The notes below the pieces were generated by a model that saw nothing but the letters and a program-made list of their open reading frames with translations, had not been told where the DNA came from and made no database searches. A stretch of DNA of 64,000 bases from an uncultured Pelagibacteraceae bacterium (GTDB taxonomy: Bacteria; Pseudomonadota; Alphaproteobacteria; Pelagibacterales; Pelagibacteraceae). The stretch is from positions 4,061-68,060 of the forward strand of contig CACJOA010000003.1 in the NCBI GenBank assembly GCA_902594915.1, written 5' to 3'. Both the position numbers and the translations under genes were made by a program. Below are positions 9,904 to 46,070 of the stretch, piece by piece (the stretch's first letter is position 1; each line of letters opens with the position of its first letter).

Positions 9904-11190
9904 ATGGAAGATTTCAAAGTAAAAGATATATCTCAAGCAGAATTTGGACGAAAAGAAATTTCAATTGCCGAAAGTGAAATGCCAGGATTAATGGCATTAA
10001 GAGATGAATATAAAGATAAGTCACCTTTAAAAGGAGCTAAAATTATCGGCTGTTTACACATGACCATTCAAACGGCAGTATTAATAGAGACACTATCTTC
10101 CTTAGGAGCAGAAGTTAGATGGTCATCTTGTAATATTTTTTCAACACAAGATCATGCAGCTGCTGCAATAGCAAAAGAAGGAATACCAGTTTTTGCTTGG
10201 AAAGGTGAAACTGAGGAAGAGTACCTATGGTGTATAAAACAAACTATTGTAGGTAAAAAAAATTGGAAGCCTAATATGCTTTTAGATGACGGAGGTGACC
10301 TAACCGCGATAATGCATAACGAACATAAAGATTTACTGAAAGATGTAAGAGGTGTTTCCGAGGAAACTACTACAGGTATAAAAGCTTTAAATAAAATGGA
10401 AAAAGATAAAAACCTTTTAATACCAGCAATCAATGTAAATGATTCTGTAACCAAATCTAAATTTGATAATTTATATGGATGTAGAGAAAGTTTAGTTGAT
10501 GGGATTAGAAGAGCAACAGATGTAATGATGTCAGGAAAAATCGCGATTGTAGCTGGATTTGGAGATGTGGGCAAAGGGAGCGCTGCTTCTTTAAGACAAA
10601 GTGGAGCAAGAGTTTTAGTAACAGAGGCTGATCCTATTTGTGCATTACAAGCTGCGATGGAGGGTTATGAAGTAGTTTTGATGGAGGAGGCAATAAACAA
10701 AGCTGATATAGTTGTAACTGCTACAGGAAATAAAGATATTGTAACCGCAGATCACATGAGAGAAATGAAAGATAGAGCAATACTTTGTAATATTGGTCAT
10801 TTCGACAATGAAATTCAGGTTGAAGCATTAAAAAATTATAAATGGACAGAAGTAAAACCCCAAGTACATGAAATAGAGCTTCCAAGCAAAAAAAGAATTA
10901 TACTTTTGGCAGAGGGAAGATTAGTAAATTTAGGATGTGCAACAGGCCACCCAAGTTTCGTAATGAGTGCTTCATTTACAAATCAAGTAATAGCTCAAAT
11001 TGAGCTTTGGAACAATCACAAAAATTATGAAAACAAAGTGTATGTTTTACCTAAACATTTAGATGAAAAAGTTGCAACACTACACCTTAAAAAAGTAGGA
11101 GCAAAACTTACTAAACTTTCAAAGGACCAAGCAGATTATATAAGTGTAGGAGTAGAGGGTCCTTTCAAACCTGATGCCTATCGCTACTAA
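9904..11190 (+). CDS. ahcY: S-adenosylhomocysteine hydrolase
   Basis: [47 protein letters not shown]. Confidence 0.99.
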
Positions 11191-11647
11191 AAGTGATAAA
11201 ATAGATATATCTTCAGAAAAAAAAATAGAAGATTTAGCAAATCTTTTTCTAAAAAAACTAAAAATTGGTGATGTCATTTTTTTACATGGTGAAATGGGTG
11301 TTGGGAAAACAACATTTGTCAAATATCTTATTAATAGTTTACAAAAAATGAATAGTTTAACTCTAACAGAGGTCACCAGCCCAACTTTCAACCTCTTAAA
11401 TGAATATCAAATTAATGATGTTAAGATAAATCATTATGATTTATTCAGGATACAGTCACTTCGAGAAGTTAAAGATTTAGGAATATTTGAAGATTATCCA
11501 AAAGTTATTACATTTATAGAGTGGCCACAATTAATTAAAAATAAACCAAAAAATTTGATAGAATTAGAGTTTAATTATGAAAATAATTATCAAAAAAGAT
11601 CTGTTAAAATAAAAGGCATTAATTTTAATTTATTTAATGAAAAGTAG
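11174..11647 (+). CDS. tsaE: tRNA t6A biosynthesis ATPase TsaE
   Basis: GEMGVGKT Walker A, SPTF, HYDLFR, IEWP. Confidence 0.95.
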
Positions 11648-12581
11648 AGAACATCTAAAAAAAATTACAGGCGATGCATCTTTTAGAACTTTTTTTAGAA
11701 AAAAAAATAAAACAAATAGCTCTATAATTGTTTATGCTAAAAAAGAAAAATTTCAAAACCTACTAGTTTACGATGCAATAAATAAAATCTTGATTAAAAA
11801 TAAGATATTAGCTCCAATTCTTTATAAGGAGAATTATAAAAAAAATAATATCGAGATTCAAGATTTTGGAAACAATACTATTTATAAAATATTAAAAAAA
11901 AAAAAAGTTAATAAATTTAGATTTTTCAAAAGAATATTAGAAGTACTAAATCAAATACAATCAATAAAAGATAATAAAGTCTTAAATTTCAAAAGAGGAA
12001 AATATTTTATCCCTAAATATGATAGTAAAATTTTAGTGAGGGAGGCACATTTATTCTGCGATTGGTATGTAAAAGAAAAATTACCTAATAATATGCAAAA
12101 AAAATTTAATTATAAATTTAAAAAGATTGTAAGAAAACTATCCTCCAACTTAAAATTAAAAAATAGAGTTTTTGTCCACAGAGATTTTCATGTTTCAAAT
12201 TTAATGTTATTTAATAAACAAATAGCTGTAATTGACAGCCAAGATGCACATTTTGGTAATAAAGCTTATGATTTAGCTTCATTAATAGATGATGTTAGAT
12301 TTAAAACTTCGACACAATTTAAGAATAGAATTTATAAAATGTACATAAATAACCAGAGCCTTTTAGAAAAAAAAAATTTTAAGAATGATTTTGAAATATT
12401 ATCGGTTTTAAGAAACTTAAAGATTATCGGAATATTTACTCGCTTAGCAGTTCGAGACAAAAAAAGAAATTATTTAAAATTAATTCCCTACGCCTGGAAA
12501 TTAATTGAAAATAGAATTTACAGAAATAAACAGTTCGAAGAATTAAATATCCTTTTAAAAAAAAATTTTAAGATGAATTAA
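11637..12581 (+). CDS. amgK: MurNAc/GlcNAc kinase AmgK-like phosphotransferase
   Basis: GDASFR, HRDFHVSNL, IDSQDA, YDLASL, LKIIGIFTRL; between tsaE and murU. Confidence 0.8.
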   Translation: MKSREHLKKITGDASFRTFFRKKNKTNSSIIVYAKKEKFQNLLVYDAINKILIKNKILAPILYKENYKKNNIEIQDFGNNTIYKILKKKKVNKFRFFKRILEVLNQIQSIKDNKVLNFKRGKYFIPKYDSKILVREAHLFCDWYVKEKLPNNMQKKFNYKFKKIVRKLSSNLKLKNRVFVHRDFHVSNLMLFNKQIAVIDSQDAHFGNKAYDLASLIDDVRFKTSTQFKNRIYKMYINNQSLLEKKNFKNDFEILSVLRNLKIIGIFTRLAVRDKKRNYLKLIPYAWKLIENRIYRNKQFEELNILLKKNFKMN

Positions 12582-13271
12582 ATGAAAATAAAAACAGCTT
12601 TAATTTTATGTGCAGGATTTGGAAAAAGATTAAATCCTGTTACTTTAAAAATTCCAAAGCCATTAATTGAAATAAAAAAAGTTTCTATGTTAGAGCATTG
12701 TATTAATTTGATAATTAATTTGGGTGTAGAAAAAATTTGTCTTAATACATTTTATTTAGGTAATCAAATTTCTGAATTTATTAAAAAAAAAAATTTTCCT
12801 TTGGAAATAAAAATAATCAATGATGGGAAAGAAATTCTAGATACTGGTGGAGGAGTACTAAATATGATTAATACCTATCATGAGAATGATTATTTAATTT
12901 TTAATCCAGATACTATTTGGAATAATGATTACACTAGCGAAATTAAAGATATGGAACAATTATATTTTAAAAAAAATTTAAACAACATTTTATTAGTGTC
13001 CCAAAAAAAATTTAGCTTTGATAAAAGATTTAAAGGTGATTTTGAATTGATGAATAATCTTTTAAATAGAAAAAATAAAAAAGATTATATTTATATCGGT
13101 TGTCAAATTTTAAAAAAGGAATTGTTTAAAGATTTCGTAATTAAAAGATTCTCGATTTCAAAAATTTGGGAGAAATTATTGAATAAAAATCAATTAAATG
13201 GTTTTGAAAGTACAAATAAATTCAATCATTTAACAGACTTAGAAATTTTTAAAAAACTAAAAGATCATTAG
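12582..13271 (+). CDS. murU: MurU-like nucleotidyltransferase
   Basis: LCAGFGKRLNP.T...PKPL, LDTGGG; synteny with amgK. Confidence 0.78.
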   Translation: MKIKTALILCAGFGKRLNPVTLKIPKPLIEIKKVSMLEHCINLIINLGVEKICLNTFYLGNQISEFIKKKNFPLEIKIINDGKEILDTGGGVLNMINTYHENDYLIFNPDTIWNNDYTSEIKDMEQLYFKKNLNNILLVSQKKFSFDKRFKGDFELMNNLLNRKNKKDYIYIGCQILKKELFKDFVIKRFSISKIWEKLLNKNQLNGFESTNKFNHLTDLEIFKKLKDH

Positions 13272-38138: not shown

Positions 38139-38255
38139 TTTATCTTTAAAGTATATGAGAATAATTTTGATTATATCTAAATTTCGCATTACTGCATACA
38201 TAGCTATTAAAAAACCTATTCCAAAAACAATTTTCAATATAAGATATGATTCCAT
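38124..38255 (-). CDS. Small membrane protein (43 aa), not in ORF track
   Basis: MESYLILKIVFGIGFLIAMYAVMRNLDIIKIILIYFKDKLLGK*; AAGGGA a few nt upstream of ATG; fills the hisG-rmuC gap. Confidence 0.6.
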   Translation of the reverse strand: MESYLILKIVFGIGFLIAMYAVMRNLDIIKIILIYFKDKLLGK

Positions 38256-38285
38256 AAAAATCCCTTATAATATAAGATACGAATC

Positions 38286-39377
38286 ATGGACACATTTTTA
38301 TTAACAATCTTGATTTTAATGTTTGGAGCAATCCTGACTATTTTATATTTAAATATAAAGTTCAAGAATGACAGCAGAGCAGATGAGACTAATGTAATAG
38401 CAAATTTGAACACAGAGATTATTAGACTAAAAGATAGCTTAAATTCTACAATCAATACATCTCTAAGTTCGATGTCTACCTCATTTAACTCTTTATCAAC
38501 TGGGGTTACAAAGGACATGACTGAGGCCCTTACAAAAGTTGATGAGAAGGTCGGTAATTTTAACGAACAAGTAAAGCTCTTAAATCAAAGTCAAGAAGGA
38601 ATCACTAAAATTTTAGCAGGGGTCAAAAAGTACGGAACTTTAGCTGAGTATTCTTTAGATGCTTTAATAAAAGATTTGCTTCCAGCATCACAATACATGA
38701 TTAACGTTAAGATGAAAGAGGATACTAATGAAAATGTAGAATTTGCCATTAAACTTCAAGGCGATGTGTTAGTTCCAGTAGATTCTCATTTTCCAGTAGA
38801 AAAATTTAAAGCAATTACCGAAGCTTATGAAGCTGATGATAAAAAAGCAATAGCTGACGCTCGAACAAAATTAGCAAGTGCTTTTAAAGCAAAAGCAAAA
38901 AGTGTAAATGAAAAATATATTTTCCCACCAAAAACAACTGATTTTGCAATCGTTTATGCTCCTACAGAGAGTTTATATAAAGAACTAACTGAGTATCAAG
39001 ATCAAGGAACAAAAGAATTATTAACCCAAGAATTGATGAAAAAATTTAAAATAGTTATTTGTGGCCCTAATACTTTATCAGCATATTTGCAATCTTTACA
39101 CATGGGGTTCCAATCACTGAAGGTTCAAAAAGGTGCTACAGAAATTTATAATCATTTAAAAACAATTAGTACAAGATTTGGTAAACATTTTGATAATGTT
39201 ATTATTCTTAGAAAAAAACTTGAAGAAGCAATGAATGTTGTAGATAAGTTCGGAACTGATGCTAGGTCAATCACCAGAACTTTGGAAAACATTAAAGATC
39301 CCGAGCAAGTTGAAAAAGCTATTTTAACAGATAACGTTGAGAAATTTGTTGAAAAAAATAAACAGCTTAAAAAATAA
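38286..39377 (+). CDS. rmuC: DNA recombination protein RmuC family
   Basis: N-terminal TM and coiled coil, G.LAE..L, VEFAIKL, VDSHFP, KYI.PP.TTDFAI, GP.TL.A.L.SL.MGF. Confidence 0.88.
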   Translation: MDTFLLTILILMFGAILTILYLNIKFKNDSRADETNVIANLNTEIIRLKDSLNSTINTSLSSMSTSFNSLSTGVTKDMTEALTKVDEKVGNFNEQVKLLNQSQEGITKILAGVKKYGTLAEYSLDALIKDLLPASQYMINVKMKEDTNENVEFAIKLQGDVLVPVDSHFPVEKFKAITEAYEADDKKAIADARTKLASAFKAKAKSVNEKYIFPPKTTDFAIVYAPTESLYKELTEYQDQGTKELLTQELMKKFKIVICGPNTLSAYLQSLHMGFQSLKVQKGATEIYNHLKTISTRFGKHFDNVIILRKKLEEAMNVVDKFGTDARSITRTLENIKDPEQVEKAILTDNVEKFVEKNKQLKK

Positions 39378-39414
39378 TTTCTTTTTTCAGATAATACCGA
39401 CTATAAGAAATCTC

Positions 39415-40101
39415 ATGCGTTGGAACAAAAAATATGACTATCCTACAAGTTCAAGAGCGACAGAAGATGGAATAAGAAGATATGTTTTAGGAGAAGCAAA
39501 GTTACCTAGTGTAACTTCAATACTCGATGCAACAAAGTCTGAGGAAGATAAAGCAGCTTTGGCTAATTGGCGTGAAAGAACTGGCCACAAAGAAGCTGAA
39601 GCTATTACAAAAGCAGCAAGTAGCAGAGGCTCACAGATGCACAGCTATTTAGAGTCTTTTCTTTTAGGTAGAGAAAATTTAACTTTCTTTGAGGATAAAG
39701 AGCAATATAAAAAAATGGCAAAAGAAATTATTGATAAGGGTATAACTAACAGATTAGAGGAAATATATGGAGTGGAGTGCACTATGTATTATCCTGAGAG
39801 ATATGCTGGCACAGCAGACTGTGTGGGCGTATATGAGGGAAAAGAAACAATAATTGATTTTAAGCAGTCCAACAAACCCAAAAAAGCTGAGTACATAGAC
39901 TCTTGGTTTTTACAAACTGCTGCTTATTCTTTAGCACATAATGTTGTTTATAATTCAAATATCAATGCTTGTGTTATTCTAGTTTGCACAGTAGATAATT
40001 TGTTTCAAGAGTTTAAAATTCAAGGATCTGAATTAATAACATATCAAAATTTGTTTTTAGGAAGATTGAAAAAATTTAGTGAAATAAATAATTTAGTTTA
40101 A
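39415..40101 (+). CDS. PD-(D/E)XK exonuclease, MGME1/phage exonuclease-like
   Basis: LPSVTSIL, WRERTG, RGSQMH..LE, YAGTADC, IIDFKQS, LQTAAY; ATG 39415 preferred. Confidence 0.85.
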   Translation: MRWNKKYDYPTSSRATEDGIRRYVLGEAKLPSVTSILDATKSEEDKAALANWRERTGHKEAEAITKAASSRGSQMHSYLESFLLGRENLTFFEDKEQYKKMAKEIIDKGITNRLEEIYGVECTMYYPERYAGTADCVGVYEGKETIIDFKQSNKPKKAEYIDSWFLQTAAYSLAHNVVYNSNINACVILVCTVDNLFQEFKIQGSELITYQNLFLGRLKKFSEINNLV

Positions 40102-40107
40102 TAAAAA

Positions 40108-41544
40108 ATGGATAAAATTGTAATTTATGATACTGAAACAACAAACTCAACAATATGGGGATCCATAATTGAAGTTGGTGCCGTTGTAGTTGATAAAAAT
40201 TTAAATGAAATTGGAAAGTTAAATATAAGAGGACGAATGCCAGAAGGTGAGGTGCCAAGTGCAAAGGCCTTGCTTGTTAATTCAACTAGTATTGATCTAT
40301 TAACTAAAGGCAATTATTCACATTATGACTTCTTAGGTGCTGTTGAAAATTTTTTTTCTAAATGCGCCCCAGCAATGTTTATGGGCTGGTCAAATCTAAA
40401 TTTTGATCGGAGAATGTTCCACTTTAATTTTTTTAAGGGCAATCGTTATCCTTACGCCACTCACTCATCACCCAATAGCGAACATGATGGTTTACACATA
40501 GCCAGGGCGGCTCAAACCTTAAATTCCGAAACTTTAAAAACAGAATTAACAGAAGCAGGTAACCCAAGTCTAGCATTAGAATCTTTATCAAGAATGCAAG
40601 GTTTCGACACTTCTGCTAGTCACACTGCCTACGTAGATGCCCAAAATTCATTGAAGGTCCTTCGAATTATCAAAGACAAACATAAAGAAAATTGGGAAAC
40701 GTTTTTAAAAACATCAACAAAAACAAGCGTAGAAATGTTCTTAAAAAATGAAGGTATATATTCTATTTTTGAAAATGTTAAGGGTAGAAATATGATGTAT
40801 CTTACTAGCACACTACATCCTAATCACTGTTTTCATCCATCATATACATCGTGGGGATACGTTTGGGATTTAAGAAGAGATCCAGAACCATTGTTAAACT
40901 TACCAGTAAATCAATTACGAGACATATTGAAAAAATATAGCCCTAAGGCTCTAAGAGTTTTAAAGACTAACAAAGCTCCAGTTATATTAGATAAACAATT
41001 TGGTCTTAAACAAAAACCATATTCGGATTTAGATTTAGCAACAATTCAAAAACGAGCTAAACTTGTTAGAGAAAGTGAAAATTTTTGTAAAAATATACAG
41101 TTTATTAATAGAGAGGCCGCGGAGGAAAAGGAACAAACAAAAACTCAAGAAGATTTATTACCAGAGGAAACTCTTTATGAGAAATTTATTCCCAATAAAG
41201 ATACTGCATTATTTAAAACATGGCATAGTTCATCTTGGGAAGATAAATTAAGATTATTAGATAAGTTTCAAGATAAAAGATGTAGTTGGTTTGGCCAAAA
41301 AATTATTTACCAAGAAGCACCACAAATTTTACCACCAGATCTTTACAAAAACATCAAGAGTGAAATAGCTAGAAGAATTTTGAGTAAAAATAAGGAAAAG
41401 TGGCAAACCGTCAATATGGCTTACACTGAAATTGATTATTTAAGAGATCAAGCTTCAAATAGAGATGATGATGAGGAGCTAAAAAAACTTGATGAAATCA
41501 ATCAATTTATAATGTCAATTGAAAAAAAATATGAAATAGCCTAG
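40108..41544 (+). CDS. sbcB: Exodeoxyribonuclease I (DEDDh)
   Basis: YDTETT, NFD, HTAYVD, KTNKAP, EETLYEKF; 478 aa, ExoI-like length. Confidence 0.82.
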   Translation: MDKIVIYDTETTNSTIWGSIIEVGAVVVDKNLNEIGKLNIRGRMPEGEVPSAKALLVNSTSIDLLTKGNYSHYDFLGAVENFFSKCAPAMFMGWSNLNFDRRMFHFNFFKGNRYPYATHSSPNSEHDGLHIARAAQTLNSETLKTELTEAGNPSLALESLSRMQGFDTSASHTAYVDAQNSLKVLRIIKDKHKENWETFLKTSTKTSVEMFLKNEGIYSIFENVKGRNMMYLTSTLHPNHCFHPSYTSWGYVWDLRRDPEPLLNLPVNQLRDILKKYSPKALRVLKTNKAPVILDKQFGLKQKPYSDLDLATIQKRAKLVRESENFCKNIQFINREAAEEKEQTKTQEDLLPEETLYEKFIPNKDTALFKTWHSSSWEDKLRLLDKFQDKRCSWFGQKIIYQEAPQILPPDLYKNIKSEIARRILSKNKEKWQTVNMAYTEIDYLRDQASNRDDDEELKKLDEINQFIMSIEKKYEIA

Positions 41545-41578
41545 TTGACATTAATGATAATAATTATAGACAGATAAT

Positions 41579-41896
41579 ATGCTAATAGATTTTAAAGATG
41601 AAGATTTTGATAACAAAATCAAAAATGAGGATATTTCAGTAATTCAATTTAGTGCTTCATGGTGTGGTCCTTGTAAGACTTTAAAACCAATAATGGATAA
41701 ACTAGCTGGCGAATATAAAGATAAAGCAGGATTTTATTACGCAGATATTGAAGATGGGGGAATAAATACAGGTAGTGCAGCGGGAATTAGAGGTGTACCA
41801 ACAGTAATCATTTATAAAAAAGGTGTCGAGGTCGATAGAAAAGTTGGTGGAGTTCCCGAAAGTCACATGAAAGATTTTTTGGAAAAAAATATTTAA
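41579..41896 (+). CDS. trxA: Thioredoxin
   Basis: WCGPC, IRGVPT. Confidence 0.96.
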   Translation: MLIDFKDEDFDNKIKNEDISVIQFSASWCGPCKTLKPIMDKLAGEYKDKAGFYYADIEDGGINTGSAAGIRGVPTVIIYKKGVEVDRKVGGVPESHMKDFLEKNI

Positions 41897-43158
41897 TTTA
41901 AATCTAAAACTTCAGAACATAAGTAAAGAGATCCAGTTACCAACAACAAATCACCTTTACTTAAATTCACTGATTTAATAGCTTGAGTTAAACTTTCTTT
42001 ATACACAACGTTAGAAAAATGGTTAAATTTTTTTTTTAAGTCTTTTCCACTGATTGAGTTAGGCTGACTTTTGATATCAACTGTCGTAATGGATGAAATA
42101 TCTTTAAAATAACTGATGTACTTTTCGTGATCCTTATTTTTCATCATTCCAATTATAATATGCTTTTTACAATCTAGACTTTTTAAGTAATCATTTAAAA
42201 CTCTAGCGCCATCTTCATTATGGTCTCCAGAAACTATAAATAAATTGTTTTTAACTAAATTTTTTAATTTTCCTGACTTAATTTCTTGAAGCCTAGCAAT
42301 ATTATTAATTTTTTGAATTCCATTTATTATATGTTGATTTTTAATACCTAGATCTAACATTCTAAGACTTGCAATTGCAGTAGATATATTCTCTAGCTGG
42401 TATTGACCAAGAACATTTGGTTGAGGTAGTTTTAGTCCTCCGAATTTATCCTCATAGTAAAAAAATTTATTTTCTTTTTCAAGAAATGAAAAATCTTCGT
42501 TAAAAAAAATCTTTTTTGATTGATTTTTAGCTATAGTTTTTTTAATACATTTAAGTGTTATATTGTTACTTTGTTTTGCAACAACAATTTTCGAATTCAA
42601 AAGAGCAGAAGTTTTTTCGAATACAATTTTTTCAATTGTTCTTTCATTTTTAGGAAGCCAATCTAAATGGTCTTTACTAATTGATGTTATAATAGTGGCT
42701 AAATTTTTCTTAAAAATATTAGTTGCATCAAACCTAAAAAATAATCCAGCTTCAATAAGATTAATATTATTTGGATATTGTCCAGCCTTATATAGATAAC
42801 AAGCGGTCAGCATTTCAAAGAATGTTATGGGTTGATTATTATTAATTTTTTCGACTTTTTCAAAAATGGTGACTAGATCATTATCATTTAACTCTTGGTT
42901 GTTAAAAATGAATCTTTCATTGATTTTTTGTATATGTGGACTTGTAAAAACATTACATTTTATATTAGCTTCTTTTAATATCGAGTAACATGCCTGTATA
43001 GTTGAATTCTTACCATTAGTACCAATTACATTTATTACTTTAATTTTATCTTGAGGATTACCAAGTTTTTTGCAAAGATTTTTGATACGATCTAAACTTA
43101 GATCAATCTCTTTTTTATGCAATGTTAGAAAGCGACTGAGTATTTTCTTTAGTTTCAT
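41893..43158 (-). CDS. folC: Folylpolyglutamate/dihydrofolate synthase
   Basis: GTNGK.ST, TSPH, FFE.LT, EAGL..RFDATN, GSLYL. Confidence 0.95.
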   Translation of the reverse strand: MKLKKILSRFLTLHKKEIDLSLDRIKNLCKKLGNPQDKIKVINVIGTNGKNSTIQACYSILKEANIKCNVFTSPHIQKINERFIFNNQELNDNDLVTIFEKVEKINNNQPITFFEMLTACYLYKAGQYPNNINLIEAGLFFRFDATNIFKKNLATIITSISKDHLDWLPKNERTIEKIVFEKTSALLNSKIVVAKQSNNITLKCIKKTIAKNQSKKIFFNEDFSFLEKENKFFYYEDKFGGLKLPQPNVLGQYQLENISTAIASLRMLDLGIKNQHIINGIQKINNIARLQEIKSGKLKNLVKNNLFIVSGDHNEDGARVLNDYLKSLDCKKHIIIGMMKNKDHEKYISYFKDISSITTVDIKSQPNSISGKDLKKKFNHFSNVVYKESLTQAIKSVNLSKGDLLLVTGSLYLCSEVLDLN

Positions 43159-44041
43159 TTTCTTCAGTGCTTACGACAGAATTTTTCTTTAGCAATATTG
43201 ATAACAAAGTTCCAATTTTGGCTGAAAGATCTTTTCTTTCAACAATCAAATCAATAAAACCAGTTTTTTTTACGTATTCACTCTTTTGAAAACCTTCGGG
43301 TAATTCTTCTTTGACTGTACCTTGTATAACTCTAGCACCAGCAAAAGCAATCAAAGCACCAGGTTCAGCTATTTGAATATCTCCTAGCATTGCGTAAGAG
43401 GCAGTTATACCTCCAGCAGTTGGATCAGTAATGCAAACTATGTATGGTAGATTATTTTTTTTTAATTCATTTATTGCAAGAGTAGTTCTTGCCATTTGTG
43501 ATAAAGAAATTAAACTTTCCATCATTCTCATTCCTCCACCAGCGCTTATACATAAAAACGGGGTATTATTTTCTATAGCATGTTGAATTCCATACAAAAA
43601 TGCTTCTCCTTCCGCAGCTGCCATTGAGGCACCTAAAAAATCAAAATCAGATGCTACGGCTGTGATTTTGATATTTTGAATTGATCCACAAACAACCATC
43701 ATTCCACATTCCATTCCAGTTTTTTTTCTAGCGCTGGACAATCTACTTTTATAAGATTTTGAATCTGTCCAATTCAATGGATCATCCTTTGGAATAGGTG
43801 TTTTAAATATTTCATAATTATTTTTTCCAAATAAAATATCAAATCTTTGTTTTGGTTTTATTCTGTGATGTTTATTACAGTCTGGACAGCAAAATAAATT
43901 ATCTTCAAGATCTTTTTTTAATATAGGACCTTTGCAACACGAGGTCCAGTCGCTATTAGCAATATCCTCTTTTGATGCTCTTTTATGAATAGCAGTTTTA
44001 ATTTTTTCGCCAGCCTTGATTATTTTTGTTATCCAATTCAT
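43115..44041 (-). CDS. accD: Acetyl-CoA carboxylase carboxyltransferase beta subunit
   Basis: Cys cluster, GGMRMME...SLSQM, DPT.GGITASYAMLGD, FAGARVI. Confidence 0.97.
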   Translation of the reverse strand: MNWITKIIKAGEKIKTAIHKRASKEDIANSDWTSCCKGPILKKDLEDNLFCCPDCNKHHRIKPKQRFDILFGKNNYEIFKTPIPKDDPLNWTDSKSYKSRLSSARKKTGMECGMMVVCGSIQNIKITAVASDFDFLGASMAAAEGEAFLYGIQHAIENNTPFLCISAGGGMRMMESLISLSQMARTTLAINELKKNNLPYIVCITDPTAGGITASYAMLGDIQIAEPGALIAFAGARVIQGTVKEELPEGFQKSEYVKKTGFIDLIVERKDLSAKIGTLLSILLKKNSVVSTEENETKENTQSLSNIA

Positions 44042-44841
44042 ATAATTTTATTTTTTAATTTTTTTACTACATTAGTCGCATTTGTGACAGCATTTTGTCC
44101 TTTTTTAATAGACCTAGTAATTTCATTACAAATTGCGCTTCCCACAACTAATCCATCAGCTTTTTTGAGCGAGTTTATTGATTTTTCTGTAATACCGAAA
44201 CCTATTACAACTTTTTTGTGTTTATTATGACTCTTAATTTTTGTGTATTCTCTGAGTATTTTTTTAGGAGATACCTTCAGTTTTCCCCCAGTGGTAGATA
44301 ACATACTTATGTAATATATCATATCATGTGATTCTTTAATAATTTTGTTCAATCTTATTTTAGAAGTTGTTGGTGAAATTAGTTGAATAAAGTTTATTTT
44401 ATTTTTTTTACATTTATATGCAAACTTTTTATTTTCTGGGTAAGGTAGGTCTACAACTATAAGACCATCTACTTTACTCGTTTTGCATATTTTAATAAAT
44501 TTATCCTCTCCGTATTGGTAAATCATATTAAAGTAACCCATTAAAATTATTGGTTTGTTTTTTTTAATTTTTTTAAAATTTTTAACTATTGAAAAAACAT
44601 CCTTCATTTTGATACCATTCTTAATAGCACGGTAAGAGCTAGTTTGAATTTGACCACCATCAGCGATAGGCGTATTATGAGGGAATCCTAGCTCACAAAT
44701 ATCTGAATAATTTGATATTGATTTCAAAATTTCTAAAGATTTTTTCTTTGTATAATCTCCTGCTACGGTATAGGTCAGTAAGGCTGGTCTTCCTTCATCT
44801 TGTGCTCTTCTAAATGCTTTTATAATTAATGAGTTGTGCAT
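44038..44841 (-). CDS. trpA: Tryptophan synthase alpha chain (divergent)
   Basis: ELGFP...PIADG..IQ, LMGYFN, VDLP, GFGI, VVGSA. Confidence 0.92.
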   Translation of the reverse strand: MHNSLIIKAFRRAQDEGRPALLTYTVAGDYTKKKSLEILKSISNYSDICELGFPHNTPIADGGQIQTSSYRAIKNGIKMKDVFSIVKNFKKIKKNKPIILMGYFNMIYQYGEDKFIKICKTSKVDGLIVVDLPYPENKKFAYKCKKNKINFIQLISPTTSKIRLNKIIKESHDMIYYISMLSTTGGKLKVSPKKILREYTKIKSHNKHKKVVIGFGITEKSINSLKKADGLVVGSAICNEITRSIKKGQNAVTNATNVVKKLKNKII

Positions 44842-46070
44842 TAATATTTTCCTAATCTTTTTCTCAAAATATCTTGATCTTTTTTAGCATCACCGCATGA
44901 ATTGACTATAATGATTGTATTTTTTTCCAATTTTGGAGCAATTTTTATTGCTTCAGCAAAAGCGTGACTTGGTTCCAAGCTTGGATTAAGTTTTTCTAAT
45001 TTGGTTACAAGTTTGTAGGCATTCAATGCTTCCTCATCCGTAGCATAAGTATATCTTGCCCGCTTGGTATCTTTTAGAAAACAATGAATTGGACTTACAC
45101 CCGGATAATCCAAACCTGCACTTATGGATTCTGTTTCCGCTATTTGACCCTCGACATTTTGACAGACATATGAAGCAGCTCCATGTAGTATACCAATTTT
45201 AGCATCTTTACTTAAGGGTGCGGCATGAAGTTTTGATCCTTTAGGACCACCGGCTTCAACACCAATTAGTTCTACGCGATTTTTGTCATAATCAATAAAA
45301 TTGCTCCAAAAACCATAGGCAGAACTTCCTCCACCTACACAATTAATTAATTTAATTTTTCTAGGAATTTTTTTGAATTCTTTTTTAATCTGAAATTTTA
45401 ATTCTTTAGAAATTTGTGAAGTACTCCATCCACAAATTTTGACAAATATATTTGGCCCCACCGTCGAACCAACACACATATGTGTGTTATCGCAATTTGA
45501 TACCCAATACCTCATGCATTCGCTAACAGCATCAACCAAAGTTTGGCTACCTGAATAAACTGGCACTATTTCTGCACCGTTTTTCCTTATTGCCTCACAA
45601 TTAGGTCTCTGTCTTTTAATATCTTTTGCTCCCATAAAAATTTTGCACTTAAGTCCAAATTTTTTAGCTGCCATACTTAACATTTTACCTGCATAACCTG
45701 CGCCAGTATCACCAACAATATATTTTTTACCCATAGCTTTGCAAATCAAAGCATGTACAGTCGCATTATATATCTTATGAGCACCTCCATTTGCCTCTGA
45801 TACCATCTTTGCCCATATTTGAGCCCCACCTAAATAATTAGTTAAATTTTCTAGTTTTATAAATGAAGTTGGTGATCCAATATAATTTTTAAAATAAAAA
45901 TCTTTTTTTTCTAAAAATTTTTTATTTTTTCTCAACTTTTTGAATTCTGTGGTTAAATCTTCAATTGGTTTTTTTAGAGTTTCAGGTATAAAACTCCCTC
46001 CAAACTTACTCCCCCAAAATCCATACTTATCGTGCTGGTCAATTAATGGAATTTTTTTTCTAATTTTCAT
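44841..46070 (-). CDS. trpB: Tryptophan synthase beta chain (divergent active site)
   Basis: GAHK, TGAG, CVGGGS, SISAGLDYPGV, LE.SHA; adjacent to trpA. Confidence 0.88.
   Translation of the reverse strand: MKIRKKIPLIDQHDKYGFWGSKFGGSFIPETLKKPIEDLTTEFKKLRKNKKFLEKKDFYFKNYIGSPTSFIKLENLTNYLGGAQIWAKMVSEANGGAHKIYNATVHALICKAMGKKYIVGDTGAGYAGKMLSMAAKKFGLKCKIFMGAKDIKRQRPNCEAIRKNGAEIVPVYSGSQTLVDAVSECMRYWVSNCDNTHMCVGSTVGPNIFVKICGWSTSQISKELKFQIKKEFKKIPRKIKLINCVGGGSSAYGFWSNFIDYDKNRVELIGVEAGGPKGSKLHAAPLSKDAKIGILHGAASYVCQNVEGQIAETESISAGLDYPGVSPIHCFLKDTKRARYTYATDEEALNAYKLVTKLEKLNPSLEPSHAFAEAIKIAPKLEKNTIIIVNSCGDAKKDQDILRKRLGKY

Follow-up and report, generated by a model that had tools for sequence, protein, structure and literature searches.

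In Escherichia coli, recBC cells regain recombination when exonuclease I (ExoI; SbcB/XonA) is lost, because 3' tails are then spared, and the terminus is amplified when ExoI is missing together with ExoVII or SbcCD (PMC7326373). The regained recombination implies that ExoI in the absence of RecBCD counters recombination at DNA ends, and a cell with ExoI and no AddAB would thus be expected to destroy such ends instead of recombining them. Proteobacteria that have SbcB tend also to have RecBCD and SbcCD (PMC6452273), and Caulobacter is described as lacking SbcB (PMC1839093). In mitochondria, MGME1 acts with Pol gamma to degrade broken DNA, and loss of MGME1 raises recombination intermediates (PMC11014290). 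Here, we describe a locus in a 64,000-nucleotide stretch of DNA (the window) from an uncultured Pelagibacteraceae bacterium of the SAR11 group (GCA_902594915.1, contig CACJOA010000003.1), where an ExoI gene stands at the position held by addB-addA in other alphaproteobacteria. The window assembly (G000) has 1.05 Mb, is 88.6% complete, and has a GC content of 29%; Candidatus Pelagibacter supplies its closest named homologue. A sequence-only reading of this DNA had described three clustered nuclease genes, rmuC, an MGME1-like exonuclease gene, and the ExoI gene, as a possible helicase-free replacement for AddAB.

The position of the locus was established from addA loci of the class. trxA follows addA in 28 of the 30 top-scoring alphaproteobacterial addA loci, with a convergent folC within 1.5 kb in 11 of the 30, and this bears out the earlier placement of the trio in an addAB slot upstream of trxA. 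The longer order tsaE-amgK-murU-addB-addA-trxA was present in 5 of 12 class-wide regions (L151, L156, L157, L158, L160) and in 8 of 14 regions of one order (L249-L255, L258); the remaining regions in both tallies end early or lack some flanking genes. In the window, trxA (41579..41896, + strand) is the downstream anchor of this ancestral operon, and folC-accD-trpA-trpB (41893..46070, - strand; accD and trpA/trpB named by reading translations) forms the convergent landmark. The upstream half of the operon, ahcY-tsaE-amgK-murU (9904..13271, + strand; named by reading the L106 translations), lies 25 kb upstream of the slot with no addB after it; SAR11 keeps only the trxA side. AddA and AddB models returned UvrD only and no real match in the 88.6% complete G000, which supports the absence of addAB implied by the sequence-only reading. 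No SF1A helicase-nuclease fusion was found at the locus or elsewhere in G000, and no AddB/RecC-like second subunit was found in G000. The description of the module as helicase-free holds for the locus and fails for the cell, where UvrD and RecG are present.

ExoI and AddA are nearly exclusive in a profile of 121 alphaproteobacterial genomes, sampled at roughly one genome for each family. Of the 121, 115 have AddA and 8 have ExoI, the latter comprising five of the six AddA-less genomes and three of the 115 AddA-positive genomes, in which ExoI does not adjoin trxA. (Without the unpublished genomes G087, G368, and G307, the tallies of 115/121, and of 103/107 and 25/25 given below, become 114/120, 102/106, and 24/24, and the claims are unchanged.) An AddA/AddB/RecB-type PD-(D/E)XK nuclease domain in a frame longer than 900 aa was detected in 0/61 test genomes and in 9/9 controls. 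The same replacement recurs outside SAR11. The order of G067 has ExoI in 21 of its 22 genomes, at every one of these 21 loci in the arrangement amgK-murU-ExoI-trxA with convergent folC; G067 itself shows the full ancestral run of ahcY, tsaE, amgK, murU, ExoI, and trxA. In the order of G100, a weakly matching model found ExoI in 9 of 15 genomes, with tsaE-ExoI-trxA and convergent folC at 9/9 loci. Further cases are L183, L194, and L207; L201 and its kin; and L184, L186, and L202, and the five of these genomes that were tested gave AddA matches of UvrD length only. The murU-ExoI-trxA loci L184 and L202 come from 1.4-Mb genomes that are the only 2 of 51 in the draw from their order without AddA; their order-mates have tsaE-amgK-murU-addB-addA-trxA, and the 49 sampled keep AddA. 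This distribution places at least that swap inside a group that otherwise carries AddAB. The proposed link between the locus and AddAB loss was borne out, more strongly than the sequence-only reading could show. Replacement of exonuclease VII by ExoI, considered as a separate possibility, was ruled out because xseA is present in most lineages with ExoI in the slot.

Within SAR11, ExoI is again the constant element. It fills the slot in 20/20 loci of genus g1; three of these loci stop at contig edges, and 16 of the other 17 have all three genes, 11 arranged as in the window and 5 arranged differently and with a distant RmuC. The sister family f2 likewise has ExoI in the slot at 17/17 informative loci (three of 20 were dropped, two as truncated and one as a phage contig); the arrangement is ExoI-RmuC-trxA in 16 of them, and the MGME1-like gene is absent from all. 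Records of HIMB114, Fonsibacter, and many Pelagibacteraceae have the order RmuC-ExoI-trxA. Among the best 80 matches to one ExoI, which is a biased set, trxA or folC is no more than 5 kb away in 71 loci, and 0/80 have the MGME1-like gene. In SAR11-type loci that show both genes, RmuC and ExoI are at most about 4 kb apart (34/34 and 45/45 loci); either gene may come first, and at least four RmuC clades are represented. RmuC is far from ExoI in 5/5 ExoI-positive genomes tested outside SAR11. These tallies imply that the RmuC-ExoI pair is SAR11-wide and that the trio is a genus-level arrangement. The trio as a unit, as first proposed, was not supported by this comparison, given an RmuC that is linked and exchangeable in SAR11 only and an MGME1-like gene nearly confined to one genus (see below). 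We conclude that ExoI is the conserved unit and that its two neighbours are later, more restricted additions.

The ExoI gene (40108..41544, + strand), the fixed occupant of the former addB-addA position, encodes 478 aa with a PF00929 domain and a C-terminal PF08411 domain (Exonuc_X-T_C, E 2e-15), the exonuclease plus ExoI C-terminal architecture of about 475 aa, and PDB relatives agree. NCBIfam PRK11779 covers residues 4-472 (E 2.5e-31) at 108.8 bits, short of the 260-bit equivalog cut-off, which implies a divergent subfamily and not the curated equivalog. The DEDDh residues D8, E10, D100, H172, and D177 are invariant in 22/22 alignment rows; a set of 150 ExoI representatives served solely to deepen an alignment. 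The SSB of the window genome ends in DDDIPF. The residues R148, Y207, Q311, and R316 of the SSB-tail pocket of E. coli ExoI are not conserved in the window ExoI in an alignment at only about 23% identity. Neither ExoI nor the MGME1-like protein has a hydrophobic segment. The reverse transcriptase-associated SbcB model of PADLOC also matches the window ExoI (E 2e-54); no reverse transcriptase stands beside ExoI within the window, which is as far as that search went in this genome.

The middle gene (39415..40101, + strand; 228 aa counted from ATG) encodes a stand-alone PD-(D/E)XK exonuclease, likely phage-derived, whose best solved relative by sequence is human MGME1 (E 7e-12). A fold model with pLDDT 93 gave human MGME1 as the best Foldseek match (E 2e-12, TM 0.75), ranks 1-9 were all MGME1 (TM 0.69-0.75), and the following match came at E 6e-6; the protein has the MGME1 fold as a stand-alone RecB-type domain. 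H76, E121, D135, D148, K150, Q167, and Y171 are invariant in the protein, and the H, D, D-x-K, and QxxxY motifs that all of these but E121 make up are invariant in 25 rows and align to human MGME1. Bacteria thus have a well-folded version of a protein whose human gene is linked to disease, and this version also has relatives in phages: identity is 43% to pelagiphages HTVC023P and HTVC027P and up to 51% to viral contigs, and relatives occur in 927 phage records, the best being pelagiphages. Cellular MGME1-like proteins form one branch (support 99) against 44 viral rows, and on this tree the gene likely stems from a single phage capture.

The MGME1-like gene is present in 103 of 107 genomes of genus g1 and in 1 of 53 genomes of the nine other genera of family f1, the single carrier belonging to g140. 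A lone match in an f2 assembly is explained by its location on a phage-like contig, L069 (G053:C17), with primase-, helicase-, and PolA-like genes. Exonuclease VII (xseA) was found in 0/107 g1 and 0/1 g140 genomes, making 0/108 for the two genera that carry the MGME1-like gene, and xseA and the MGME1-like gene never co-occur in family f1; 27 genomes of five f1 genera have neither. xseA itself splits the family cleanly, with 25/25 genomes in three genera and 0/135 in the other seven. This distribution implies that the loss of ExoVII probably preceded the arrival of the phage gene, although the pattern amounts to only about one loss and one gain. Another small PD-(D/E)XK nuclease was considered as a stand-in for the MGME1-like gene and rejected; such genes occur in 16/61 genomes, and the nine regions examined are scattered outside the slot. 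Only in G024 and G406 does a small PD-(D/E)XK gene lie inside it. A second small PD-(D/E)XK family of 235-280 aa (L264-L272) is scattered in islands, often beside methylases.

The RmuC-family gene (38286..39377, + strand; 363 aa) encodes a hydrophobic N-terminal helix at residues 4-22 (hydropathy 2.67), long helices, and a nuclease-like core, and matches PF02646 at E 1.9e-49 with 168.8 bits against a cut-off of 26. The three gene names of the sequence-only reading were upheld by family scans, solved structures, and a confident fold model. Its count of three nucleases was sustained by the motifs of ExoI and the MGME1-like protein and is doubtful for RmuC, because the RmuC clade of the window has E...D-S-H in place of D...D-x-K. 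Here the motif is E152...D166-S167-H168, without the lysine of PD-(D/E)XK nucleases. Among 36 aligned slot RmuCs, 22 including that of the window have E...D-S-H, 13 have D...D-x-K, and one has D-S-F. A fold search with RmuC returned nothing at E 0.001 and only weak nuclease matches, the best at E 4e-3. In this clade, RmuC may have a weakened active site and serve as a scaffold at the membrane. The main marine SAR11 RmuC clade has E...D-S-H with or without an MGME1-like neighbour and is a candidate pseudo-nuclease.

SAR11 bacteria are reported to lack much of the textbook recombination machinery. RecA and UvrD are present in G000, and RecQ, RecBCD, SbcCD, and DprA were not found there. Across five genomes tested, RecO was found in 5/5, RecG in 5/5 (slightly below the cut-off), RecJ in 4/5 (not G000), and RuvB in 1/5 (G067), so that RuvB was not found in 4/4 SAR11 genomes. 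ComEC was found in 0/30 genomes of AddAB-less, ExoI-carrying lineages (G000, f1, f2, f9, f42, G081, G216-G220), seven of which were placed by lineage and not individually tested for AddA or ExoI, and in 16/16 other genomes, ten or more of them equally small (0.9-1.4 Mb included). The failure to find ComEC argues against the earlier suggestion that the nucleases trim incoming DNA taken up by transformation.

From these results, we consider the ExoI locus to be a cheap clean-up unit that likely keeps the end-destroying job of AddAB and drops its preparation of ends for recombination, with a probability of roughly 55%. What was observed directly is that ExoI stands in place of addB-addA, that ExoI and the MGME1-like protein keep their catalytic motifs intact, and that UvrD, RecG, RecO, and RecA are present (RecJ in 4/5); polarity and degradation by the slot proteins are predicted from sequence and by analogy. 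In this scheme, UvrD or RecG would open broken ends and the flaps where replication forks meet, ExoI would remove the 3' strand, and RecJ or, in the genus Pelagibacter, the phage-derived MGME1-like enzyme would remove the 5' strand, much as broken mitochondrial DNA is cleared by MGME1 together with the 3' exonuclease of Pol gamma. A helicase-nuclease of about 2,100 aa would be replaced by one ATPase-free enzyme of 478 aa, RecA would be active chiefly at gaps in one strand, and the MGME1-like gene would likely have filled the vacancy left by the earlier loss of exonuclease VII. If so, SAR11 and the other small-genome marine alphaproteobacteria with this swap likely trim and discard DNA ends instead of repairing them by recombination. 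The locus names the gene that takes the place of AddAB and offers a direct test of what a free-living cell must keep after AddAB loss. Its genotype, ExoI without RecBCD or AddAB, is a recombination-deficient state in E. coli and runs contrary to the published tendency of SbcB to accompany RecBCD.

Several points weigh against this reading. SAR11 is reported to recombine very often, at odds with a purely destructive locus. SbcB of Vibrio promotes transformation and interacts with RecA (PMC11784430), which implies that ExoI can be pro-recombination, and doubt has been raised that fork collision yields 3' flaps (PMC7326373). G128 has neither AddA nor ExoI, the AddA-less G081 has its ExoI outside the slot (L107:9082-10509) and far from folC, and recovery of ExoI in the G100 order was incomplete and by a weakly matching model. 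ComEC loss tracks the ExoI lineages equally well, so the disappearance of AddAB may be just one among several losses that ran in parallel. The MGME1-like gene is not required, since 31 of 160 family members lack both it and ExoVII. Finally, the lineages are few and share an ocean habitat and small genomes, so the profile depends on a handful of events.

We built quick ExoI trees with and without a mixture model and ran approximately unbiased (AU) tests under LG+G4. These trees unite 28 slot ExoIs, drawn from five lineages, with a Shimodaira-Hasegawa-like approximate likelihood ratio (SH-aLRT) support of 98, and f2 joins this group at 89; three long-branch groups have no firm place, and the ExoIs of the G100 order, L068, and G081 have no firm position. 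A single clade of all 35 slot ExoIs was not rejected (p 0.54), and a single clade of the 21 SAR11 ExoIs was rejected (p 0.0056), a combination that points to transfer. The trees thus favour, short of proof, the spread of one ExoI cassette between lineages. A FolC tree for the host lineages was set aside as its rows sorted by composition. The same-site swap in several orders represents either repeated horizontal displacement or a rare shared character for the alphaproteobacterial tree. The fuller account is tentative: that a single ExoI cassette horizontally displaced addAB in place in unrelated streamlined marine alphaproteobacteria and that Pelagibacter added a phage MGME1-like exonuclease, converging on the mitochondrial mode of disposal, so that the most abundant bacteria of the ocean would follow a 'degrade, do not repair' pathway for DNA ends.

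The locus could instead be a functional AddAB replacement that promotes recombination, in which the MGME1-like enzyme or RecJ resects 5' strands and ExoI blunts ends or helps RecA. The exact positional swap in several lineages, the presence of RecA, RecO, and RecG, the SbcB-RecA interaction in Vibrio (PMC11784430), and the reported high recombination of SAR11 all fit this idea. We consider it unlikely in view of a locus without a helicase, AddB-like, or Chi-reading part, the antagonism of E. coli ExoI to RecF-pathway recombination at ends, and the repair gene survey, in which RuvB was not found in 4/4 SAR11 genomes, RecQ was not found in G000, and ComEC was found in 0/30 genomes. Somewhat less probable again is linkage without compensation, by which streamlining deleted addAB, recombination at the conserved flanking genes carried the ExoI cassette between marine lineages, and a variable island has rmuC and the phage gene as passengers at its edge. 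The AU tests (p 0.0056 for SAR11 ExoIs, p 0.54 for all slot ExoIs), the variable gene order and RmuC clade, the insertions in the hisG-rmuC gap, and an RNA contig that joins across rmuC are consistent with passengers. A passenger ExoI would not, however, be expected to show such scarcity beside AddA (3/115) and such frequency without it (5/6), the genes are under strong purifying selection, the MGME1-like gene is retained in 103/107 genomes of its genus, and RmuC stays within about 4 kb of ExoI in all 34 and all 45 SAR11-type loci.

A role against phages or mobile elements, with nucleases anchored by RmuC at the membrane to degrade injected DNA, would account for the defence-like genes inserted alongside the locus, the PADLOC match at E 2e-54, the hydrophobic N-terminal helix kept in the RmuC sequences compared, and the fast allele turnover. 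It is improbable for a single-copy locus that is near-universal at a housekeeping operon in whole orders, unlike patchy defence systems, that has no reverse transcriptase adjoining ExoI in the window, and whose ExoI or RmuC occurs within 1.5 kb in 0/80 viral loci. Salvage of phosphorus and nucleotides from DNA in oligotrophic water would suit the small-genome aquatic lineages to which all carriers examined belong. This seems very improbable, as ExoI and the MGME1-like protein lack a hydrophobic segment, no DNA uptake channel was found, and siting in place of addAB is left unexplained. Among these explanations, we favour end clean-up by ExoI.

In the window, hisS-hisZ-hisG lie upstream, followed by rmuC, the MGME1-like gene, ExoI, and trxA with gaps of 37, 6, and 34 nt; these open reading frame (ORF) coordinates confirm the co-oriented trio, its 37- and 6-nt gaps, and the convergent folC-accD-trpA-trpB reported earlier. 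Relative to the close relative G031, dN/dS is 0.07, 0.05, and 0.03 for the three slot genes, indicating purifying selection. At synonymous sites, ExoI (1.45) and trxA (0.98) diverge more from G031 than the 0.48-0.55 of rmuC, the MGME1-like gene, and hisZ, which suggests that the ExoI-trxA stretch (40108-41896, compared with L032) is a recombined patch. A scan for promoters and terminators gave 21 and 2 sites, no different from shuffled sequence. Metatranscriptomes gave only small shares in the 12 runs examined; contigs from four runs (85% likeness) span all three genes in relatives, with strand, level, and single-transcript status not readable from them. A complex prediction of ExoI with RmuC residues 30-350 scored 0.00, which speaks neither for nor against pairing.

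Relatives of the locus carry several insertions. The hisG-rmuC gap (38139..38285) is empty in the window and is a variable-insertion site in relatives; in L035, L036, L040, and L047 it holds defence-like cargo, with a C5 methylase, AAA_21/AAA_15 ATPases, a NurA-like gene, and an SNF2-like helicase. An element recurring at the slot in four g1 genomes (L050:8751-17279, L051:2228-14171, L354:11181-20000, L356:6852-18800) holds an ExoI that is inverted and very divergent, together with an S24-peptidase repressor-like gene, small ORFs, an RmuC of a distant type, an RNase H-like/SF1 helicase of 1,115 aa, and, in three of the four, a 530-aa protein of unknown type; this element returns a helicase to the addAB position. 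In f2, a conserved ORF of about 90 aa without a Pfam match abuts the ExoI start in L054 (5112-5384) and 12 other loci, and a staphylococcal-nuclease-family gene precedes it in 10 of the 13. In G081, trxA is not adjacent to folC.

A literature search found no description of ExoI in the addAB position, although Cromie 2009 and Viklund 2012 may note that Pelagibacter lacks addAB, and supplements of PMC6452273 may list SbcB and AddAB by genome; the available part of PMC4285135 does not cover the locus or the swap. Each protein belongs to a known family. Compared with E. coli ExoI, the window protein has the full length, the C-terminal PF08411 domain, and the catalytic residues (D15/E17/D108/H181/D186 of E. 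coli correspond to D8/E10/D100/H172/D177), but is only about 23% identical and falls under the NCBIfam cut-off. Its setting also departs from the published SbcB pattern, in that ExoI occurs here where neither RecBCD nor AddAB was found. The reverse transcriptase-associated SbcB of PADLOC (DRT) and DRT10 (preprint 10.64898/2026.04.29.721553) shares the profile match at E 2e-54; the window ExoI differs in having his genes, trxA, and folC as neighbours and no adjoining reverse transcriptase. The RmuC gene resembles the family of E. coli RmuC in its Pfam match, N-terminal membrane helix, and long helices around a nuclease-like core, and differs in the E...D-S-H motif of 22/36 slot RmuCs and in a linkage to ExoI seen only in SAR11.

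With human MGME1 and the Pol gamma 3' exonuclease, the locus shares the fold and catalytic motifs of its middle gene and the pairing of a 5' with a 3' exonuclease, here predicted to turn over broken DNA. The window protein, by contrast, is bacterial and cytoplasmic, is 23-27% identical to human MGME1 and nearer to phage exonucleases, and has ExoI and not a polymerase as its partner. With alphaproteobacterial AddAB, the locus shares the position between murU (or tsaE) and trxA and, in the MGME1-like protein, one RecB-family nuclease domain with weak Foldseek matches to AddA/AdnA. It differs from AddAB in having no SF1 helicase, AddB, or ATPase in the slot, where ExoI alone is constant.

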